A stretch of DNA of 63,351 nucleotides from a virus, in IMG/VR virus record IMGVR_UViG_3300045988_110668, one strand, 5' to 3'. This document shows positions 2,105-63,351 of this stretch, piece by piece. Numbering within the stretch: position 1 is the stretch's first letter; each line of letters opens with the position of its first letter. The notes beneath the pieces were generated by a model, which was given only the letters and a program-made list of their open reading frames with translations, was not told the DNA's origin and did no database searches. Both the position numbers and the translations under genes were made by a program.

Positions 2105-2139
2105 ACCATGCCACTTGACATAGTTTCCGCACAAATATA
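2105..2139 (-). promoter_or_regulatory. -7 box TATATTTG plus a conserved start-site-proximal hairpin (loop TCAAGTGG), upstream of the tape measure gene
   Basis: The minus strand reads TATATTTG (2139-2132), then ACTATG-TCAAGTGG-CATGGT (2124-2105). The same motif occurs at 18217-18249 and 59186-59215. Confidence 0.55.
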
Positions 2140-5277: not shown

Positions 5278-5460
5278 TATGTTTGCGGCGTTCAACATAT
5301 TTAAATCGACTGTGCAGGCGGAGCTTGCATTCTTATGCAGGCATTTTTTATGCTTGTATTTAAAATATTGAGGTATATTGTACCCCCGTGTGGAACTATA
5401 ATGGAACCACAGCATAGTCGATATGTGTTGAACAGCGGGAAAGGCAATATACCTTTTTTA
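5278..5460 (+). promoter_or_regulatory. Promoter plus structured leader with interleaved P1 helix and intrinsic terminator (leader copy 1)
   Basis: Elements in order: TATGTTTG 5278-5285; P1 strands 5290-5311 / 5416-5433; box GCAGGCATTTTTTATGCTTGTA 5337-5358; terminator stem 5372-5380 / 5445-5453; T6. Confidence 0.7.
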
Positions 5461-5517
5461 TTTATTGTTATGTTCAACAATATCGACAATCATCATCAAA
5501 CAAATAATAGTAGTTTG

Positions 5518-6258
5518 ATGGCGACGTTAATCCACGACACGGATAGAATGAGTTCGCTTGAAATAGCTGAACTTACAGGCAAAAGACATGATGCTATCTT
5601 GCGAGACATCAGGAACTTACTAAAACAAGGAGTATCACACCACAATTTTGTGGAGACATCCTACAAGCAACCACAGCCAAGAGGAGGATATAAAGAACTC
5701 CCCTGCTTCGAACTCACCAAGAAAGGATGCCTGATCCTCGCCTCCGGCTACGACGCAGTACTCCGTGAGAAGATTATTGATCGCTGGGAACAACTCGAAC
5801 TAGAGAAGCGCAAACCTCAAACTCCCCAAACCTACCTCGAAGCCCTGAAAGCCCTCGTATCATCGGAAGAGGAAAAGCAACGGCTGGCACAGGAGAAGAA
5901 GCAACTAGAACAGCAAAACGCCAAACTCCAGCCAAAAGCAGCCTTTGCCGACGCAGCCTTCGCCACCGACGACAAGGTAGACATAGGAATGTCCGCCAAG
6001 ATCCTAAAGCTCGGATTCGGGCGAAATACCCTATTCGACAAGCTAAGGAAAGCGGGCGTATTCTTCGCCAACCGCAACGAACCCAAACAGAGGTTTATTG
6101 ATGCCGGATACTTCGAGATGAAGGAGAAATTCATCGAGCGAAACAATCATCCGGGATTTGTCGTAACCAAAGTGCTAGTTACCCAAAAGGGATTGGCTTA
6201 TCTGAACCACCTGTTTGGAGGAAAACCTTCTGACGGAAAGCTAGCCAAGATAGTATAA
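5518..6258 (+). CDS. Antirepressor-type protein (Rha-like N-terminus plus KilAC/ANT-like C-terminus)
   Basis: Start chosen at MATLIHDTDRMSSLEIAELTGKRHDAILRDIRNL (Rha-like). C-terminus reads KAAFADAAF...DIGMSAKILKLG...LFDKLRKAGV...GYFE (KilAC-like). The upstream 61 codons of the track ORF overlap the leader RNA. Confidence 0.75.
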   Translation: MATLIHDTDRMSSLEIAELTGKRHDAILRDIRNLLKQGVSHHNFVETSYKQPQPRGGYKELPCFELTKKGCLILASGYDAVLREKIIDRWEQLELEKRKPQTPQTYLEALKALVSSEEEKQRLAQEKKQLEQQNAKLQPKAAFADAAFATDDKVDIGMSAKILKLGFGRNTLFDKLRKAGVFFANRNEPKQRFIDAGYFEMKEKFIERNNHPGFVVTKVLVTQKGLAYLNHLFGGKPSDGKLAKIV

Positions 6259-6603: not shown

Positions 6604-7320
6604 TCACATTGCCAACAGATTGATGATACCCTGTCTGCCAATTCCGGTAATCTTTCTATGGTAGATAATATGACCGTTGTCAGCAACCTCTTGCTTTATA
6701 TCAAACCAACCAAGCGTAGAGTATTTGGTGTATGGAACCCACGTCTGATTAACTTTGTATTGTACGCCAAGTTCTTTTAAACGGTTATTGAGTTCAATTG
6801 CCGATTTAAGCCCTAGCTCTTTCGCAACCTCCGTACATGTATAGGTCTTATTGACATGAGTAAGCACAGCTACCTGTTTCTCCGCTTCAATGCGTGCCGA
6901 CCGTTCCTCTTTTAGCTTAGTGAGAAGTTCAATACCGAAATCCGGATTATTCAATATCTGGTCAATAATATTGTCGGTAGCATAGATGCCATGTTTGCGG
7001 ATTGAAGGTAGCACTTCACTAGTTATCCATTTACGAAACGGTTTTACCTTTTGAGAAGAACTTTGAAGGATTACATCGTAAAAACCTGATTCAGTAACAA
7101 AATTAGCTTTTGTATTTCCGATACTACCCTTTGTATAATTTAGGGCGTGTAAATCAAGCAATTGTACATCCTCGCTATCTAACCTACTCTTCACAGTTGT
7201 TGGATTTTGTAACTCCAGCACTTTGCAAATATCTGCCAAGCAGAATAATGGTTCTTCACTTGTTCCGGCTACACGCACTTCACCGAAAGCTTCATTTTTG
7301 AAAATCTGAATATCATTCAT
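6604..7320 (-). CDS. Bro-N plus KilAC-type antirepressor
   Basis: Start at MNDIQIFKNEAFGEVRVAGTSEEPLFCLADICKVLEL (Bro-N). The 31 upstream track codons overlap a leader terminator. Confidence 0.75.
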   Translation of the reverse strand: MNDIQIFKNEAFGEVRVAGTSEEPLFCLADICKVLELQNPTTVKSRLDSEDVQLLDLHALNYTKGSIGNTKANFVTESGFYDVILQSSSQKVKPFRKWITSEVLPSIRKHGIYATDNIIDQILNNPDFGIELLTKLKEERSARIEAEKQVAVLTHVNKTYTCTEVAKELGLKSAIELNNRLKELGVQYKVNQTWVPYTKYSTLGWFDIKQEVADNGHIIYHRKITGIGRQGIINLLAM

Positions 7321-7358
7321 ACAATTTTCGTAGTGTGCCCTTTCACACACAGGAATAT

Positions 7359-7475
7359 AAAAAAACAGCACCGAACGCTTGAGGATCTTTCGGCACTGTT
7401 TATATATTCCCAACTCTATGGAAATACTTAATATCTTATATGCGCTTCCCCAAGCTGTATCGCACTACAAATATA
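7359..7475 (-). promoter_or_regulatory. Promoter (TATATTTG, 7475-7468) plus a leader containing an intrinsic terminator
   Basis: Minus strand: ACAGTGCCGAA-N13-TTCGGTGCTGT (two G-U pairs) followed by T7, ~40 nt upstream of the ATG at 7320. Confidence 0.6.
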
Positions 7476-8326: not shown

Positions 8327-8385
8327 TTGATAAATAATAGAAAAAGGGAAGGCTACAGCCCTCCCTCCTCTGAAAAATAACCACT

Positions 8386-12740: not shown

Positions 12741-14040
12741 TAGAGTTATTAGTTTTTAATTCACCTTTTGGATTATCAGGATCAATATCTATAAACTTTG
12801 CTAGCTCATTTCTGGATTCATCAAGAGTTATTTGACCTTTTTCAACTAACTGAATTAAAGAAGAAGCCATTTTCTGAAATGCAGAAGAAGATGATGATTT
12901 ATCCTTTTGAAGGCAGTCTACATGGGTATAATCCAGCTTTATAAAAACACCCTTAGGGCAAATAGCGTCCGTTAAAGCTTCTGCAACTTTTTCAGAATCA
13001 GGAATAATAAGACCTTGATAAGCTGATTTTTCAGCTATGCTTTTATTGTCATATTTAGATTCATCAAATAAGCTATAATCAACTCCTACCGCATTGCATA
13101 TCTTTCTGCTACATCGTTCATCCTCTTCATGAAGTTTAAGCTGGGAGGAATCATAATTCAAAGGAATCCAACCAAGTTTTATCTTTGATGTCAGAATTGG
13201 GAATTTATTGAGAATGCCATATTTTTCTTTTAGTTTAGATTCCAATATTTCTTTTTCCTCTGGTGTCATAACTTGATTACCCATCTTATCGGTATAATCA
13301 GAATAAATAATACCTTTGGGACCGCCATTTACAATTAATTGATAACTGGCTGTCATCGCTGCAATCCAGTTATTAACCGGCATAGAAAGGGAGTCTGTAA
13401 CAGAAGAGAATTCTATGTCTCGATTGGAACCATTAACATTTGCAGAACTATCGTAAATTACAAAGTAGTCTTCGTCTGATAATTCTTCCCGCAAACCATC
13501 CCACTCCAAGTATACGCTAGAAACAATATCCTTTATATCATACTGGCGAAATAGTTTCCCAGAAGAAACCATGTGAAATATCTGTGCAGGTATGATATAC
13601 ATTGCGAGTGGCAATGATTTTTTTGCTGCTCTTACAGTGAAAATGGGACAATATCCGAAAAGTTTAAGAGACATCTCAATCTCTTTTAAAAAACCAACCC
13701 TTGTTTGAAGTGGATTAGGACGTGACAACAACTCTCTAATGTCGTTATATCCCTCTTTTTCATTACCTTCCTTATCTGTGACATATATTTTCCCATTCGC
13801 AAAAAGAGAACCTATTTTATTTACAACAGTAGAAAACGGGGTACATACAAGAAGAGAATCTGCTTTATCCCTATCCAATGTTAGATCATAATCATTTTTA
13901 ATTTTACCAGATGGCGAGAAGAAATTGGAAAGATACCAGAAATTCCCATTAGAATCCTTTTCAATAGCCTTTACTGTCTCTCTCATGGAGGGAACAGATA
14001 TATTAATCCTTTTTTGAAACCAATTTCCTAATTTAGACAT
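12727..14040 (-). CDS. Portal protein
   Basis: ~437-aa ORF upstream of the protease. Start chosen at MSKLGNWFQKRI (ATG 14040). Confidence 0.65.
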   Translation of the reverse strand: MSKLGNWFQKRINISVPSMRETVKAIEKDSNGNFWYLSNFFSPSGKIKNDYDLTLDRDKADSLLVCTPFSTVVNKIGSLFANGKIYVTDKEGNEKEGYNDIRELLSRPNPLQTRVGFLKEIEMSLKLFGYCPIFTVRAAKKSLPLAMYIIPAQIFHMVSSGKLFRQYDIKDIVSSVYLEWDGLREELSDEDYFVIYDSSANVNGSNRDIEFSSVTDSLSMPVNNWIAAMTASYQLIVNGGPKGIIYSDYTDKMGNQVMTPEEKEILESKLKEKYGILNKFPILTSKIKLGWIPLNYDSSQLKLHEEDERCSRKICNAVGVDYSLFDESKYDNKSIAEKSAYQGLIIPDSEKVAEALTDAICPKGVFIKLDYTHVDCLQKDKSSSSSAFQKMASSLIQLVEKGQITLDESRNELAKFIDIDPDNPKGELKTNNSIENG

Positions 14041-14267
14041 AAAAAGAATGATTATCTGATTTGAGATAACCATTCCCTACGAAATGAAGAGGTCTTTACG
14101 GACAAAAACACTAACGAAAAAATCCGATAGCATAAAAACGTATAGGTTCCGTGCGTCTTCACACGAAGGGATTGGTAATCCTCACCGCAAATATATATAT
14201 TATTTCTATTTAGTCCAAATAAAAATAGATAATTATTTTATGATGAAATAGACATGTTTATATAAAC

Positions 14268-14347: not shown

Positions 14348-14503
14348 TTATTTCGATTTTTCAATCTTCATTTTTATTATCCTAGGAGAAGATAAATGCT
14401 TCGTGTTCAACTCCTTTTCCATTTCAGACATTCTTTCTTTCAGTTTTAGATACTCGTTTGTCAAAGTAATAACTCTTTGTAGCAAGACTTCGTACATATC
14501 CAT
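14348..14503 (-). CDS. Small coiled-coil protein (51 aa), paralog of 6363..6518
   Basis: Internal Met of track ORF 14348..14617. It is preceded by the same GAATCACAC x2 spacer as its paralog. Confidence 0.65.
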   Translation of the reverse strand: MDMYEVLLQRVITLTNEYLKLKERMSEMEKELNTKHLSSPRIIKMKIEKSK

Positions 14504-14617
14504 AGCGACATATTTTATGGTGTGATTCGTGTGATTATTCGATATAATTGTGTGTACTCCCTGTGTATTGATAAATAGTACACAGGGATGATGAAAATGT
14601 GCTGTCAGCTTATACAA

Positions 14618-15448
14618 TCAAGACAATTTTGCAAGTTGGAACCCTAATAGCCCCAATAGTTCTATAAATTTATCCTCATACCATAAAGGTTGAGTGCTTT
14701 TAGGATTGTTGGGATTGACTTGATTTTCACCGTACAAAAGACCTGATTCAGTTATGGATTTGAAAGGCTTGTCTTTACCATGTGACGATTTTCTTTTCAT
14801 CTCACATAAGAATCCCTTTTGAATTGCTCTTTGATTAAACGCTTGTGCACTGATAGATAATCCTTTTTCTTTGAGCAATTCAGTGGCGGACTTTACTATC
14901 CCTTTGCTTGGGGTATAATCGGGTGTAGGTAATCCGAGAGGAGTGGCTACTTTCCCAAGCAATGAAAGTTTAGAAGAATCATTAAGATTAAGCAGTTCAC
15001 TTACACCCTTTACCCATTCAAGACCAACACGGACTTTTGTTGTTAAGGATGGCTCACGCTTAGATTTGTTCTGGTCTTCGATTGTTTTCTGGGCAGTGTG
15101 GTGGAATACTTGTCTGTACACCTCAAACACAGGTCTTACTTTGCGGGCGATGAAGAACTCCATACAAGAAACGGTTAGGTAGTAGTTCACTTTGTTGTTA
15201 CCTCCCCAACTTGCTTCATCTTGCTTGCCATTTTGGGCAAGCGTTTTGTAATCAACTCCTTCAATGAATTGCTCGTTTGATGTCAAAGCTCTAACAGCCT
15301 TTCCCTTTTCAGAATAGACCAACGGCCACACTTCATCAAGGTTAATTGGGAACTCGTTATCAGATTGGGATAACTTTAATACAACGTTGAAGTACGCTTT
15401 GATTTCGCTTTCGCTACTTTCCTTTGATAGAATAATTTCTTTTGCCAT
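14618..15448 (-). CDS. Antirepressor-like DNA-binding protein (276 aa)
   Basis: It occupies the same cassette position as the Rha/KilAC gene. The N-terminus FPINLDEVWPLVYSEKGKAVRAL..FIEGVDY resembles phage antirepressor N-domains; this family call is from memory only. Confidence 0.5.
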   Translation of the reverse strand: MAKEIILSKESSESEIKAYFNVVLKLSQSDNEFPINLDEVWPLVYSEKGKAVRALTSNEQFIEGVDYKTLAQNGKQDEASWGGNNKVNYYLTVSCMEFFIARKVRPVFEVYRQVFHHTAQKTIEDQNKSKREPSLTTKVRVGLEWVKGVSELLNLNDSSKLSLLGKVATPLGLPTPDYTPSKGIVKSATELLKEKGLSISAQAFNQRAIQKGFLCEMKRKSSHGKDKPFKSITESGLLYGENQVNPNNPKSTQPLWYEDKFIELLGLLGFQLAKLS

Positions 15449-18199: not shown

Positions 18200-18216
18200 G
18201 TCTTTTCGTCTGATTA

Positions 18217-18249
18217 GCTACATGCCACTTGACATGTAGCACAAAGTTA
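18217..18249 (-). promoter_or_regulatory. -7 box TAACTTTG plus a perfect 8-bp hairpin GCTACATG-TCAAGTGG-CATGTAGC, upstream of terS
   Basis: Seen directly in the sequence. It shares its loop and core with 2105-2139 and 59186-59215. Confidence 0.6.
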
Positions 18250-42128: not shown

Positions 42129-42465
42129 ATAAAACCGAATTTTGGTTGCAAATATAATACCAATATTCCAATTTATAACAGAAAAAAGATAAAAAAGTTC
42201 TTTTTCTTACTCTATTTATACTTATATTCTTTTATAAATATATATAAGAATCCCCGACTACATAGCCAGGGACAAACACAAAGATATAACCCTTGCAATA
42301 ATAGCAAGAGGAATAAGCCAGTATAGCCACTTTTCTAGGCGTTCCATAGCATTACTAGCAGAAGCCGGCAGAAATCCGAGTGGTATCGGTCGTCTGCTTG
42401 TGAAATCAAATCATCTATGTAGTCTTTTTCTCTCATTTTCGCCTGTATTTCTGACAAAATGCCCC

Positions 42466-45676: not shown

Positions 45677-45747
45677 AGAGATTTATACTTTTTTATTACG
45701 GTCAATATCAACCGCATCACAAAAGTATATAATAGAAACTGCGTAAA

Positions 45748-59157: not shown

Positions 59158-59185
59158 ACGGTCTTTTCGTTCTTAAGTGGGTAAC

Positions 59186-59215
59186 AGTGCCACATGACAC
59201 TTCACTGCAAATATA
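59186..59215 (-). promoter_or_regulatory. -7 box TATATTTG plus hairpin AGTG-TCATGTGG-CACT
   Basis: Third copy of the late-operon motif. Confidence 0.55.
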
Positions 59216-61287: not shown

Positions 61288-61905
61288 TTATTTATGTTTT
61301 ATCGATTTGCTCATAGACTTTACATCTTCACACATACGCTTTACCATGAAAGCATATTCCTTTGCACTAATCTCGTTCTTCCGGATTTGCATTCCAAAAT
61401 GAGACATAACCATCACTCTTTCTCTTGCAAAGTAGTTTTTATCCATTTTTGAGTTATTTTCAGGCTTTTCCTTAGCATTTATTCGTTCAAGCATATATTT
61501 ACTCATAGAAAGGATAGAATATACTTTCTTACGTATCTTTTCGTGTTCGGAGGGAAAATATGAAAATCCAAACTCTGAAAGAATATGTGCAGCATCCTCC
61601 CAATCCTTGTTTTTAATCATAATTTCAACTCCCTTCATACACTCAATTTTTATGTGAAGGTTGATTAAATTGTTTCTTTGGGACATTTCAGACAGAAAAG
61701 AGGATCCTCCGATTATCTCTACATATTCGGTAATGAGTTTCTCCGATTGTTCGGACAGTTCTTTTTCAGAATGTTCTCCTTCGATGATAAGCTTACTCTT
61801 ATCTCCTGTAAATACATCAATGAATGTATCTAGGGAAATTTTATCAAGATCGGTGTATAACATAGTTTTTACGTACTCCTTCACACGCTTATTAATTATA
61901 TTCAA
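61288..61905 (-). CDS. Hypothetical protein immediately downstream of the tape measure (205 aa)
   Basis: Its start overlaps the tape-measure stop by 4 nt. Confidence 0.5.
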   Translation of the reverse strand: MNIINKRVKEYVKTMLYTDLDKISLDTFIDVFTGDKSKLIIEGEHSEKELSEQSEKLITEYVEIIGGSSFLSEMSQRNNLINLHIKIECMKGVEIMIKNKDWEDAAHILSEFGFSYFPSEHEKIRKKVYSILSMSKYMLERINAKEKPENNSKMDKNYFARERVMVMSHFGMQIRKNEISAKEYAFMVKRMCEDVKSMSKSIKHK

Positions 61906-63351
61906 ATAATACCTGATAGATTACGATATTCGGAAGTTCGGGCCATTTTCCGCAATGTCTTGTTCAAGTTTGCCATACTTTGATTAGCCATATCCATTTT
62001 TCGTTCAAGGTTTTTATAATCATTCTTGACATTGACAATAACCGGTTCTCCATTATTGTTTCTCATTTGTCGATCAAGCATTAGAGCATCAGAATGTAAA
62101 GACATCTTGCGATAATCGACCAAATTAGGGATAACCTTCGCTCTTTTGGGGATATCTACCAAAGTGGGAACAGAAGGAGTAATATACGCACCATTATCAG
62201 TTTCAATAACCTCCTGCCTGCCTCCATCACCAACAATAGCCAATCCACCGGGATGATTATCAGTCCCCTTTGCGTATTTAGGTATCGGCTGCGAGGCAAT
62301 TATAGCTACTTGGGCGGCTCCCATAGCTCCGATTACAGCCGCAAGAATAGGACCGGCGAAAGGTCCGGCCTCTGCCAAAGCCTTCATTATAGCCTGAGAG
62401 GTAGCAATAGTCGTCTGAATAATAGAATTAGCCTTTTGCCACTTGGCCTGCTTTTGTTCCAAGTCAGCTTTTTGCTTTTCCAATTCCTTATTTTTATCTG
62501 CTGTTGCTTGCTCGGCAGCTCTTTTTCTAGCTTCTGCTTCCTCTGTAGAGATAACACCGGACTCCGCCAACTCCTCAATGCGTTCTATCTCTTCTTCTCC
62601 AGCTTCCTCGTTCTTTTCCTGTTGCTCTTCTATTTTCTCCATTTGTTGGTCGTACATTCCAACCATAATAGAAGTTAGCCCTTCTGATATTGCACTGATA
62701 CTAGCTAATAAATCTTCAATTTCTAGTTTACCATCACGGACAACTTTTGTAATTAGGCTCATTAACCCACTAAATAATGTGCCCAATCCATCTACTGCAT
62801 TATTGCTGACATATTCCAAATGCTGCAATGAAGCTTCCAACTCTGCCCAATACTTCTTTTCATCTTCTGTTTCTTCATCTCTGGCTTTCTTCTTAGCGTC
62901 ACGCACTTTATTAGCTAAATCTATTTCAGCTTTCGCTAGAGCCTCTTTTATTTTAAACTTTTCCTCATCAGACAGACCAGAAATCTCGATTTGTTCTTTG
63001 AGGAGATCAATCGCTCTTTGAGCTTCTTGAAGAGCGTATTTTTGAGTTATTTCAGCTTTGTTTTTCTCGTATTGTTCTTTAGAAATTTCTCCCTGTCTGT
63101 ATCGTTCTAATTCATCATCAATCTCTTTTTGCATATTTTGAGAATATGCAATAGCTAATGTTGCATATTCTTGTTGCTTTTCTTCCAATTGATACTTAAC
63201 AGAAGCCTCTATCTTCTTCCTTTCTTCTTCATCTTTTTTTTCCAAGTATTTTTTGTCAATAGCCAGCAATTCGTTTTTAAGTATTTCTTCATAATTAGCC
63301 CTTAATTTATTTTCTTCTTCTGAATTACCTTTGATGAAAGCTATATTTTCC
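61902..63351 (-). CDS. Tail tape measure protein, C-terminal part (continuation of 1..2086)
   Basis: Track ORF 61902..63269 (LAIDKKYLEKK...) continues upstream without a stop to the window end. It has a coiled-coil E/K-rich region, then a Gly/Ala-rich hydrophobic stretch (GPFAGPILAAVIGAMGAAQVAIIASQP). It lies upstream of the tail-tip genes. Confidence 0.8.
   Translation of the reverse strand, partial: ENIAFIKGNSEEENKLRANYEEILKNELLAIDKKYLEKKDEEERKKIEASVKYQLEEKQQEYATLAIAYSQNMQKEIDDELERYRQGEISKEQYEKNKAEITQKYALQEAQRAIDLLKEQIEISGLSDEEKFKIKEALAKAEIDLANKVRDAKKKARDEETEDEKKYWAELEASLQHLEYVSNNAVDGLGTLFSGLMSLITKVVRDGKLEIEDLLASISAISEGLTSIMVGMYDQQMEKIEEQQEKNEEAGEEEIERIEELAESGVISTEEAEARKRAAEQATADKNKELEKQKADLEQKQAKWQKANSIIQTTIATSQAIMKALAEAGPFAGPILAAVIGAMGAAQVAIIASQPIPKYAKGTDNHPGGLAIVGDGGRQEVIETDNGAYITPSVPTLVDIPKRAKVIPNLVDYRKMSLHSDALMLDRQMRNNNGEPVIVNVKNDYKNLERKMDMANQSMANLNKTLRKMARTSEYRNLSGII
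63233..63351. repeat. Second copy of the terminal direct repeat
   Basis: Identical to bases 1-119. Confidence 0.95.

Follow-up and report, generated by a model that had tools for sequence, protein, structure and literature searches.

A bipartite RNA element predicted at the start of late transcripts in Bacteroides-type gut phages: a possible antitermination signal

Introduction

Several kinds of RNA signal are found near the start of transcripts, where they act on elongation or protect the 5' end. In lambdoid phages, nut sites combine a hairpin (boxB) with a linear boxA and work together with the N protein and Nus factors, and rrn operons have antiterminator leaders of the boxB-boxA-boxC type. 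The late genes of phage lambda are served by Q at PR'-qut-tR', and the put RNA of phage HK022 modifies RNA polymerase in cis, without a DNA site. LoaP and other NusG paralogues act at the leaders of long operons, where read-through of terminators requires an RNA hairpin in the leader; Bacteroides UpxY factors likewise act on 5' untranslated regions, and their phylum is rich in NusG paralogues. Stem-loops that stabilise the 5' end of an mRNA, such as those of the Escherichia coli ompA leader and the T7 class III/phi10 start, form a further group. To our knowledge, no nut-type system has been described in Bacteroidota, and we know of no established mechanism by which temperate Bacteroidales phages switch on their late genes. 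A 2026 study of gut-prophage induction describes early and middle-late gene clusters and gives no mechanism (10.64898/2026.06.25.734096). Here, we describe a hairpin that recurs at the late promoters of the IMG/VR virus record IMGVR_UViG_3300045988_110668, a stretch of 63,351 nucleotides (nt) referred to as the window, and which, as judged from sequence comparison, forms the top of a two-part cis-acting RNA element with which late transcripts would begin.

A common hairpin and box at late promoters

A sequence-only reading of the window had described three minus-strand sites (18249-18217, 2139-2105 and 59215-59186), each ahead of a late operon, at which a -7 box is followed within 1-10 nt by a hairpin with a shared 8-nt loop. 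The three sequences read exactly as given there (Table 1). Their common core, TGTCAWGTGGCA, is present as three exact copies, all on the minus strand and all intergenic, compared with about 0.01 expected from base composition, and a TAnnTTTG box precedes the copies by 1 nt (terS), 7 nt (tape-measure gene) and 6 nt (a gene for a protein of 299 amino acids (aa), below called the tail copy). The shared loop is real, but the eight nucleotides pair internally (U.G, C-G) and leave a tetraloop, AAGU or AUGU. The identity of the downstream genes was confirmed for terS/terL and the tape measure, whereas the 299-aa 'tail gene' matches only an unannotated PHROG, and is placed by its position after the tape-measure gene and two virion-protein genes. 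The repeated motif had thus been recognised correctly, but the tetraloop, a second, linear box and a fourth copy at the portal operon had been missed.

The primary sigma factor of Bacteroidetes has TAnnTTTG as its -7 element (PMC7366714), and this box stands before all four window copies as well as before the copies of all relatives. Going by the '-7' designation (PMC7366714), transcription would start ~4-6 nt after the box. A sequence like the -33 element (TTTG/TTG, ~19-21 nt upstream of the -7 box) can be read at the tail promoter (TTTG plus 19 nt) and at the tape-measure promoter (TTG plus 20 nt), and is absent at terS; several clades carry TTTGGA/TTTAGA-N5-TCTAAATAAT in this position.

The terS hairpin folds with -15.4 kcal/mol (z = -3.8). 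R1, a narrow covariance model made from the 12-mer core, scores the terS, tape-measure and tail copies at 35.2, 33.9 and 30.0 bits, respectively; it recovers only these three reported copies, misses the portal copy and was replaced by R2, a clade-wide model built partly from the four window copies, in which the same three score 28.1, 30.3 and 19.9 bits. With R2, four copies are found in the window, all on the gene strand and at promoters, and nothing else scores above 16.3 bits. The match of the portal copy (25.9 bits) arises by construction, because the portal sequence was among those used to build R2; independent support comes from the orthologous portal promoters of a distant clade, which carry AGCGUGUG[AAGU]UGCACGC. 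The portal hairpin is not selected in the single-sequence minimum-free-energy structure of the 120-nt portal leader. Downstream of it come a weak hairpin resembling a terminator, with a U5 run, and then CGTAAAGACC (14100-14091).

The second part of the element is a linear box with the consensus ACGAAARGAC, located 7-15 nt 3' of the hairpin. The window has just two exact copies of ACGAAAAGAC, one behind the terS hairpin and one behind the tail hairpin, and the box in its wider form (AC[GT]AAA[AG]GAC) is present in 65 of 135 unique sites, always within the same 7-15 nt. Its distance to the ATG is 0-3 nt at terS, at the tail gene and in one tape-measure clade, 46 nt in a portal leader and 124-170 nt in lysis leaders. 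As the spacing to the hairpin is held while the distance to the ATG ranges from 0 to 170 nt, the box appears to be tied to the hairpin and not to the start codon; in the lysis leaders, where a terminator also intervenes, it is not an element of translation initiation.

Conservation in related phages

A pattern scan of IMG/VR found the hairpin architecture in dozens of gut phage contigs. Relatives of terS and of the 299-aa gene were fetched by protein homology and their upstream regions read, a way of sampling that removes the bias of searching with the motif itself. All orthologs of the 299-aa gene, down to 45% protein identity, show the same order of TATATTTG, 3-7 nt, hairpin, spacer, (G)ACGAAAAGAC(C) and ATG, with stems that are wholly different by clade (AGUGUC[AUGU]GGCACU, ACAAGUG[AUGU]CGCUUGU, GCAAGUG[AUGU]UGCUUGC, GACGUGUG[AAGU]UACACGUC and AGCUUGUG[AAGU]CACAAGCU). 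Tape-measure promoters are organised like the tail ones, and here too the hairpin is kept with changed stems, relatives of the window copy showing an A-U pair turned into G.U and other compensatory changes. In a motif search with R2 across 42 related loci, 84 of 84 matches lie on the gene strand, almost all of them at the start of a terS, portal, tape-measure or tail gene. In all clades, 1-9 nt separate the -7 box from the base of the hairpin where the element precedes terS, tape-measure or tail genes; for the family hairpin of portal promoters the interval is 17-20 nt, and another hairpin lies in between.

The resulting consensus is a stem of 6-10 base pairs (bp) capped by an A-W-G-N tetraloop in which the A and the G are invariant. 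The loop is closed by C-G, G-C or G.U, and the next pair, second from the loop, is usually U.G. The 12-mer is the window clade's version of this looser consensus, UGUS-AWGN-SRCA. Among promoter-proximal tetraloop hairpins in related loci, 39 have the loop AAGT and 13 have ATGT, with every other loop seen at most 5 times. In a more distant group of terS homologs (L170-L198, 47% identity), TAACTTTG is followed by another hairpin (CUUGA-ucuuuau-UCAAG) before terS, so that the promoter-proximal hairpin is kept there and the AWGN loop is not.

Searches in other collections returned no counterpart. Rfam gave no relevant window match at the gathering threshold, and only noise at E <= 10 on two sites; blastn of the leaders against deposited phages found nothing, and the Bacteroides phages B40-8 and BF486P2 are without the element. 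A scan of the GTDB species-representative genomes for the hairpin-plus-box pattern produced one chance match, in an unrelated metagenome-assembled genome. Neither motif nor box was found in the literature searched, including in connection with Bacteroides, and the paper on RbpB, a global RNA-binding protein of B. thetaiotaomicron, offers no matching motif. Within that literature, the element is a signal not previously described for gut Bacteroides-type phages. P_BfP1E6, known as a strong B. fragilis phage promoter, may be a member of the family.

The hairpin behaves as RNA

The sequence-only reading had noted that the stem flanks differ between copies and remain complementary, and had offered an RNA stem-loop and a DNA operator as alternatives. 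The complementarity holds up, with compensatory changes across clades as well as operons. In an alignment of 34 unique hairpins, 92.3% of cells pair, compared with at most 52% when the 3' partner is slid; compensatory changes are seen at 7 of 8 pairs, and the covariation score is 0.78, against 0.285 +/- 0.029 in shuffles. RNAalifold, applied to 14 orthologous tail-gene leaders chosen by protein homology only, returns the same helix with 5 of 7 pairs covarying, and 10 of the 14 have U.G as their second pair counted from the loop. Non-Watson-Crick pairs are G.U in 49 cases on the sense strand and in 5 on the antisense strand, counted on hairpins collected by a filter that accepts G.U and not A.C, a bias that is small, though not zero, since nearly all orthologous sites passed. 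Stem replacement with pairing kept, together with the G.U bias of the sense strand, points to an RNA structure and not to an operator in duplex DNA; of the two alternatives, the stem-loop is supported and the operator is not.

Terminators downstream of the element

In relatives, the element is found upstream of terminators. A unit preceding lysis genes, reached through a conserved 93-aa protein, consists in four of them (L431, L416, L438 and L417) of an upstream terminator, TATCTTTG, the hairpin AGCGUGUG[AAGA]UGCACGC, 13 nt, the box ACGAAAGGAC, ~40 nt, a 14-bp intrinsic terminator with a U-run, and then the genes for a holin and a GH108 endolysin. Hairpin followed by terminator is also found before the portal gene in L077, with ACTAAAAGACC between the two, and before a tail-region gene in L284, a layout shared by L244. 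The ATG in L284 lies 12 nt after the terminator with no promoter between them, so the gene depends on read-through. In the window, the same holds for the intrinsic terminator at 8370-8341: no promoter follows, and the transcript must read through. By eye (inspection, not computation), the hairpin and the terminator arms show no complementarity, which makes simple attenuation by alternative structures unlikely, and inspection likewise revealed no consistent complementarity of the loop with ACCCA or with the box that would indicate a pseudoknot or other loop-to-downstream pairing. The position of hairpin and box upstream of leader terminators in relatives lends indirect support to a role in loading an antiterminator.

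Proposed function and alternatives

Our preferred reading, held tentatively and with somewhat less than even confidence, is that the bipartite element marks the starts of late (morphogenesis and lysis) transcripts as a nut-like antitermination signal on the nascent RNA. Transcription would start from an ordinary host sigma-A-type promoter (-7 box TAnnTTTG), and within the first few nt the nascent RNA would fold into the 6-10 bp stem with its A-W-G-N loop and a stem top UGUS...SRCA containing the U.G wobble, to be followed 7-15 nt downstream of the hairpin by the single-stranded ACGAAARGAC box. A factor encoded by phage or host would bind loop and box on the nascent RNA, in the manner of nut loading, stay with RNA polymerase and allow it to read through intrinsic terminators, both the leader terminators of relatives and the internal terminator at 8370-8341; the four late operons would thereby be switched on together. 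The arrangement of hairpin, box and terminator is that of factor-dependent processive antitermination (lambda PR'-tR', nut, LoaP leaders), and for this reason antitermination is rated the most likely mechanism, at a level that stays below an even chance; the transcription start positions, the binding of a factor and the antitermination step are all deduced from sequence. The further proposal that hairpin and box are the loading site of a new processive antitermination system of Bacteroidota phages, which would turn on all virion and lysis operons jointly through a factor unrelated to N, Q and NusG paralogues, is possible but more doubtful.

A number of observations weigh against antitermination. 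No recognisable antiterminator emerged from Pfam and PHROG scans of most open reading frames (ORFs), and in the window a leader terminator is missing at terS, tape measure and tail. Every late operon starts from a promoter of its own, and that of the tape-measure operon follows an intrinsic terminator (2226-2203, just upstream of the -7 box), so read-through is not strictly needed there. A similar AUGU-loop hairpin drives a cargo region whose genes may be active in lysogeny. The tail-copy hairpin alone is thermodynamically unremarkable (z = -0.26), and the G.U count carries the filter bias given above. Finally, the window hairpins at terS, tape measure and tail lie at the predicted 5' end, with ~17-28 nt between them and the ATG, a position just as suitable for a stabiliser. 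In this main rival, less likely in our view but still strong, the element would stabilise the mRNA from its 5' terminus and serve as an expression leader, with no dedicated factor: a hairpin at +1 to +5 would block 5'-end-dependent decay, the A-rich box would keep the start open for Shine-Dalgarno-independent translation, and the loop would be conserved for folding or for avoidance of host RNases. The base of the hairpin does fall at about +1 to +5 at the terS, tape-measure and tail sites, if transcription starts 4-6 nt after the box, other promoters of these phages open with hairpins of unrelated loops (UGCGGUUG[AUAU]UGACCGUA at 45727; GGAUUaccAAUCC at the portal promoter), a related hairpin precedes the cargo genes, and the search for a trans-acting factor came up empty. 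End protection, however, has no use for an invariant loop A and G or a conserved U.G stem top, nor for a box whose spacing is fixed to the hairpin instead of the ATG, and the family hairpin at the portal promoter is not 5'-terminal, starting ~15 nt or more into the RNA by the predicted start site. Protection of the 5' end is thus a plausible function, possibly an additional one, that leaves the loop bases, the box spacing and the non-terminal copies unexplained; with the hairpin at or near +1 in three of four window sites, the element probably also shields the mRNA 5' end.

The remaining explanations appear less probable still. An RNA operator is improbable. Here a protein would recognise hairpin and box once the mRNA is complete, repressing or activating the first cistrons of the late operons, for example to silence strong sigma-A promoters in the lysogen. 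A sequence-specific loop with a single-stranded box nearby does resemble mRNA protein operators, the box abuts the ATG in the terS and tail leaders, and an additional layer of control would be expected for good host-like promoters in an integrase-carrying phage; but portal and lysis leaders have both box and hairpin at a long distance from the ATG, the element is anchored on the promoter side, and the leader terminators indicate control of elongation, not of translation. That the promoter-hairpin-box-terminator units are small-RNA genes, producing for instance decoys that share late-mRNA 5' ends, is very unlikely: the units would indeed give discrete RNAs of ~100-120 nt, opened by a stable hairpin and closed by a strong terminator, but the next gene in L284 needs read-through, and no such unit exists in the window. 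We regard as equally remote a DNA operator for a late-gene repressor or activator overlapping the transcription start site. The 12-mer is an imperfect palindrome (TGYCA-N2-TGRCA) at ~+5 to +20, and that of the terS copy reaches upstream of the likely start site; yet a duplex palindrome read by a dimer would show no strand bias and would not tolerate replaced half-sites, whereas the stems are replaced wholesale between clades and between the operons of a single phage with pairing kept, and the departures from Watson-Crick pairing are the G.U pairs of the sense strand. A separate sequence ahead of the -7 box is also a stronger candidate for a DNA site. TTTGGA/TTTAGA-N5-TCTAAATAAT is found 3-4 nt upstream of this box at portal, tape-measure and tail promoters of several clades (L244, L249, L254, L041 and others), with TTTGGACTAAATAGAAATAAT (14219-14199) as its counterpart at the window portal promoter, and is a candidate site for a late activator. 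A sigma-54 promoter, a preQ1-type riboswitch and a TGT substrate were rejected on sequence grounds.

Whichever function applies, an RNA signal of ~40 nt that recurs at every morphogenetic operon across hundreds of contigs of gut phages provides a precise and testable handle on their late genes, and its predicted features (the invariant loop A and G, the compensatory stem changes, the box and its spacing to the hairpin, the leader terminators) are open to mutation. If antitermination applies, this would be the first such system described in Bacteroidota phages and the element a bait for its factor; if it is a stabiliser and expression leader, it would be a compact, portable part for high-level expression in Bacteroides.

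Search for a partner factor

Searches of the early genes and of a conserved gene block with Pfam, PHROGs and PDB sequences revealed no sigma factor, no N, Q or NusG-like protein and no RNA-binding fold, and there was no NusG or KOW match among the ORFs scanned with Pfam, which were all but a few large tail ORFs. A near-complete distant genome (contig 127742; L041, L255, L283) shares with the window only the structural genes and a block of unknown function (46885-42466), and a conserved phage-encoded factor would therefore lie among these. Within the block, the 93-aa protein (43641-43360, minus strand) is rich in arginine, with RGG motifs and a conserved C-terminal ERRRRR(S/A)NGEF, and has 477 related stretches in IMG/VR; nothing ties it to the hairpin-box element. 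The 138-aa protein encoded beside it has 93% identity between clades, compared with 40-78% for their other proteins, and a 98-aa protein of the block (46044-45748) has a weak DnaA_C-like helix-turn-helix (HTH). Proteins of the block, such as the Arg-rich 93-aa or the HTH-like 98-aa protein, are leads only, and RNA polymerase itself may fill the role, by analogy with put. The factor could just as well come from the host, although a need for a host NusG paralogue would be pure conjecture. The genes just upstream of terS are unlikely partners, as they are not conserved in the distant clade, which has an integrase there instead.

Upstream of the 98-aa gene (46190-46075, minus strand) lies an imperfect inverted repeat of ~110 nt (GCCAATCAATACTTT…GTACTGATTGGC), preceded by a terminator-like hairpin, and similarly placed long-range pairing of other sequence is seen in L283 (12770-12890). 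The repeat may be a structured leader of this small HTH-like protein.

Other promoter hairpins

A possibly related element is located at a cargo-region promoter next to the integrase gene (Table 1). Its hairpin (42273-42250) has 10 bp and the AUGU loop of the family, with another stem top, and is not matched by R2. The element (42286-42250) is kept with compensatory changes in L362, L363, L373, L377, L385, L390 and L391, and the cargo genes behind it, DUF6965 and HicB-associated ones among them, differ from relative to relative. The 107-aa gene of the window has a second promoter (42156-42149) closer to it. A different hairpin follows the promoter of a 321-aa gene at 45727-45685 (minus strand) and, in L283, at 13235-13275, where TACTTTTG and 3 nt precede UGCGGUUG[AUAU]UGACCGUA. 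This hairpin is unchanged in a distant clade with only 40-70% protein identity, which marks it as a second, distinct conserved 5' hairpin.

Genome setting

The window is the genome of a Bacteroides-type temperate siphophage with a GC content of 37.5% and a terL ~68% identical to those of Bacteroides fragilis phages; it encodes integrases, methylases and antirepressors, and nearly all of its genes are on the minus strand. The terS product belongs to Pfam Terminase_2, and PHROGs confirm terL, the portal, the major head protein, the tape measure and a tail protein. The distal tail operon, from the 299-aa gene onward, includes the lysis genes. The tape-measure gene is cut by the window boundary: its N-terminal part exits at coordinate 1 (1-2086), and an ORF at 63269-61902 matches C-terminal parts of tape-measure proteins. 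With this gene split across the ends (1-2086 / 61902-63351), the window appears to be a circular permutation of the phage genome; at the junction, some sequence appears to be missing or the frame to be broken.

Several further features were observed. Rha/ANT antirepressor-type genes and an unannotated two-gene cassette are inserted in the morphogenesis region (5335-6258 on the plus strand, 6604-7413 and 14348-15448); these inserts have their own promoter and terminators and are absent from compact relatives, in which portal follows directly on terL. The sole curated RNA family of the window is DUF2693-FD RNA (Rfam) at 35783-35733 (minus strand), with 56.5 bits against a gathering score of 44.5. 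Nearby, at ~35620-35570 (minus strand), a tRNA-like 3' fragment (…GGTTCGACTCCGG…TCCA-like), at which ARAGORN calls no tRNA, may represent an attP core that originated in a tRNA gene's 3' end. Between terL and a 276-aa gene (15659-15470, minus strand), behind a TATATTTG promoter, lies a leader of ~170 nt in which GTTACACATATTTAGTGGCAG pairs over long range with CTGCCACTAAGGTATGTGTAAC, and ACGGTCTGCAA with TTGCAGACCGT plus a T-run; it also contains an internal terminator-like hairpin (15621-15603). Rfam gives no match to this region, which looks like a structured leader, a riboswitch-like element or a small RNA.

Table 1. Promoter boxes, leader hairpins, linear boxes and associated features of the window
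Feature	Coordinates	Strand	Sequence	Remarks
-7 promoter box, terS-terL operon	18242..18249	(-)	TAACTTTG	TAnnTTTG match; kept in all terS relatives of 83-100% identity
terS site as read	18249-18217	(-)	TAACTTTG t GCTACATG-TCAAGTGG-CATGTAGC	
Leader hairpin, terS copy	18217..18240	(-)	GCUACAUGUC[AAGU]GGCAUGUAGC	5' arm 18240-18231, loop 18230-18227, 3' arm 18226-18217
Linear box, terS	18200..18209	(-)	ACGAAAAGAC	7 nt after hairpin; directly before ATG (18199)
-7 box, tape-measure operon	2132..2139	(-)	TATATTTG	TAnnTTTG match
Tape-measure site as read	2139-2105	(-)	TATATTTG tgcggaa ACTATG-TCAAGTGG-CATGGT	one G.U pair
Leader hairpin, tape-measure copy	2105..2124	(-)	ACUAUGUC[AAGU]GGCAUGGU	loop 2116-2113; two U.G pairs; ATG at 2086
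-7 box, distal tail operon	59208..59215	(-)	TATATTTG	
Tail site as read	59215-59186	(-)	TATATTTG cagtga AGTG-TCATGTGG-CACT	
Leader hairpin, tail copy	59186..59201	(-)	AGUGUC[AUGU]GGCACU	loop 59195-59192
Linear box, tail	59161..59170	(-)	ACGAAAAGAC	15 nt after hairpin; 3 nt before ATG (59157)
-7 box, portal/head operon	14188..14195	(-)	TATATTTG	preceded by TTTGGACTAAATAGAAATAAT (14219-14199)
Fourth leader hairpin, portal copy	14150..14165	(-)	CGUGUG[AAGA]CGCACG	small hairpin GGAUUaccAAUCC before it
Strong intrinsic terminator inside head-tail operon	8341..8370	(-)		directly before 176-aa tail-protein gene; no promoter after
Possible related element, cargo-region promoter	42250..42286	(-)	TATCTTTG tgttt GUCCCUGGCU[AUGU]AGUCGGGGAU	next to integrase

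Comparison with known systems

The closest parallel in layout is the lambdoid nut site. Both have a promoter-proximal hairpin and a linear box a few nt away, a conserved loop on a variable stem, several copies per genome with one per operon, and terminators downstream; the hairpin with conserved loop and maintained stem that defines boxB is found here in the covariation and the loop conservation, and the order of hairpin then box is that of the rrn antiterminator leaders. In contrast to the GNRA-like pentaloop of boxB, which serves the arginine-rich N peptide, the hairpin described here has an A-W-G-N tetraloop and a stem top containing U.G, and ACGAAARGAC is unlike boxA (GCUCUUUA; CGCUCUUUA-like), the literature having given no usable Bacteroides boxA sequence. 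Furthermore, nut marks early operons and the present element late ones, and no N-like gene was recognised with Pfam and PHROG.

The lysis units of relatives recall lambda PR'-qut-tR': their promoter looks constitutive, and ~100 nt further on a strong terminator stands immediately before the holin and endolysin genes; late genes would then be governed by read-through. This layout is seen in L431, L416, L417 and L438, and is absent from the window, whose lysis genes are part of the tail operon. What Q reads is a DNA element, and it depends on a sigma-dependent pause, whereas the conserved element here behaves as RNA; lambda has one late promoter for Q, compared with four or more here, and no Q-family protein was found. 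LoaP-type and UpxY leaders resemble the element in that long operons open with a small hairpin and intrinsic terminators behind it, but LoaP is a NusG paralogue (NGN and KOW domains) encoded with its operon, of which Pfam found none among the window ORFs scanned, and there is no sequence similarity.

Like the ompA and T7 stabilisers, the hairpin lies near +1 and, as in T7, is shared by late phage transcripts that are highly expressed. Stabilising stem-loops lie within ~0-4 nt of the 5' end, and the predicted overhang at the terS, tape-measure and tail sites is 0-5 nt, with the start site placed from the -7 box; the stabilisers, however, can do without a specific loop sequence and lack a fixed companion box, and the portal and lysis copies here are non-terminal or followed by a terminator. 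With HK022 put, the element shares the principle of a promoter-proximal RNA that would act in cis on RNA polymerase, but put consists of two larger stem-loops (~65 nt) and needs no protein, whereas here a single hairpin of 16-24 nt is combined with a linear box. At the sequence level the element belongs to none of nut, qut, put and LoaP, yet in its working it would appear to resemble the antitermination signals of nut sites and leader hairpins, or else a stabiliser of the 5' end.

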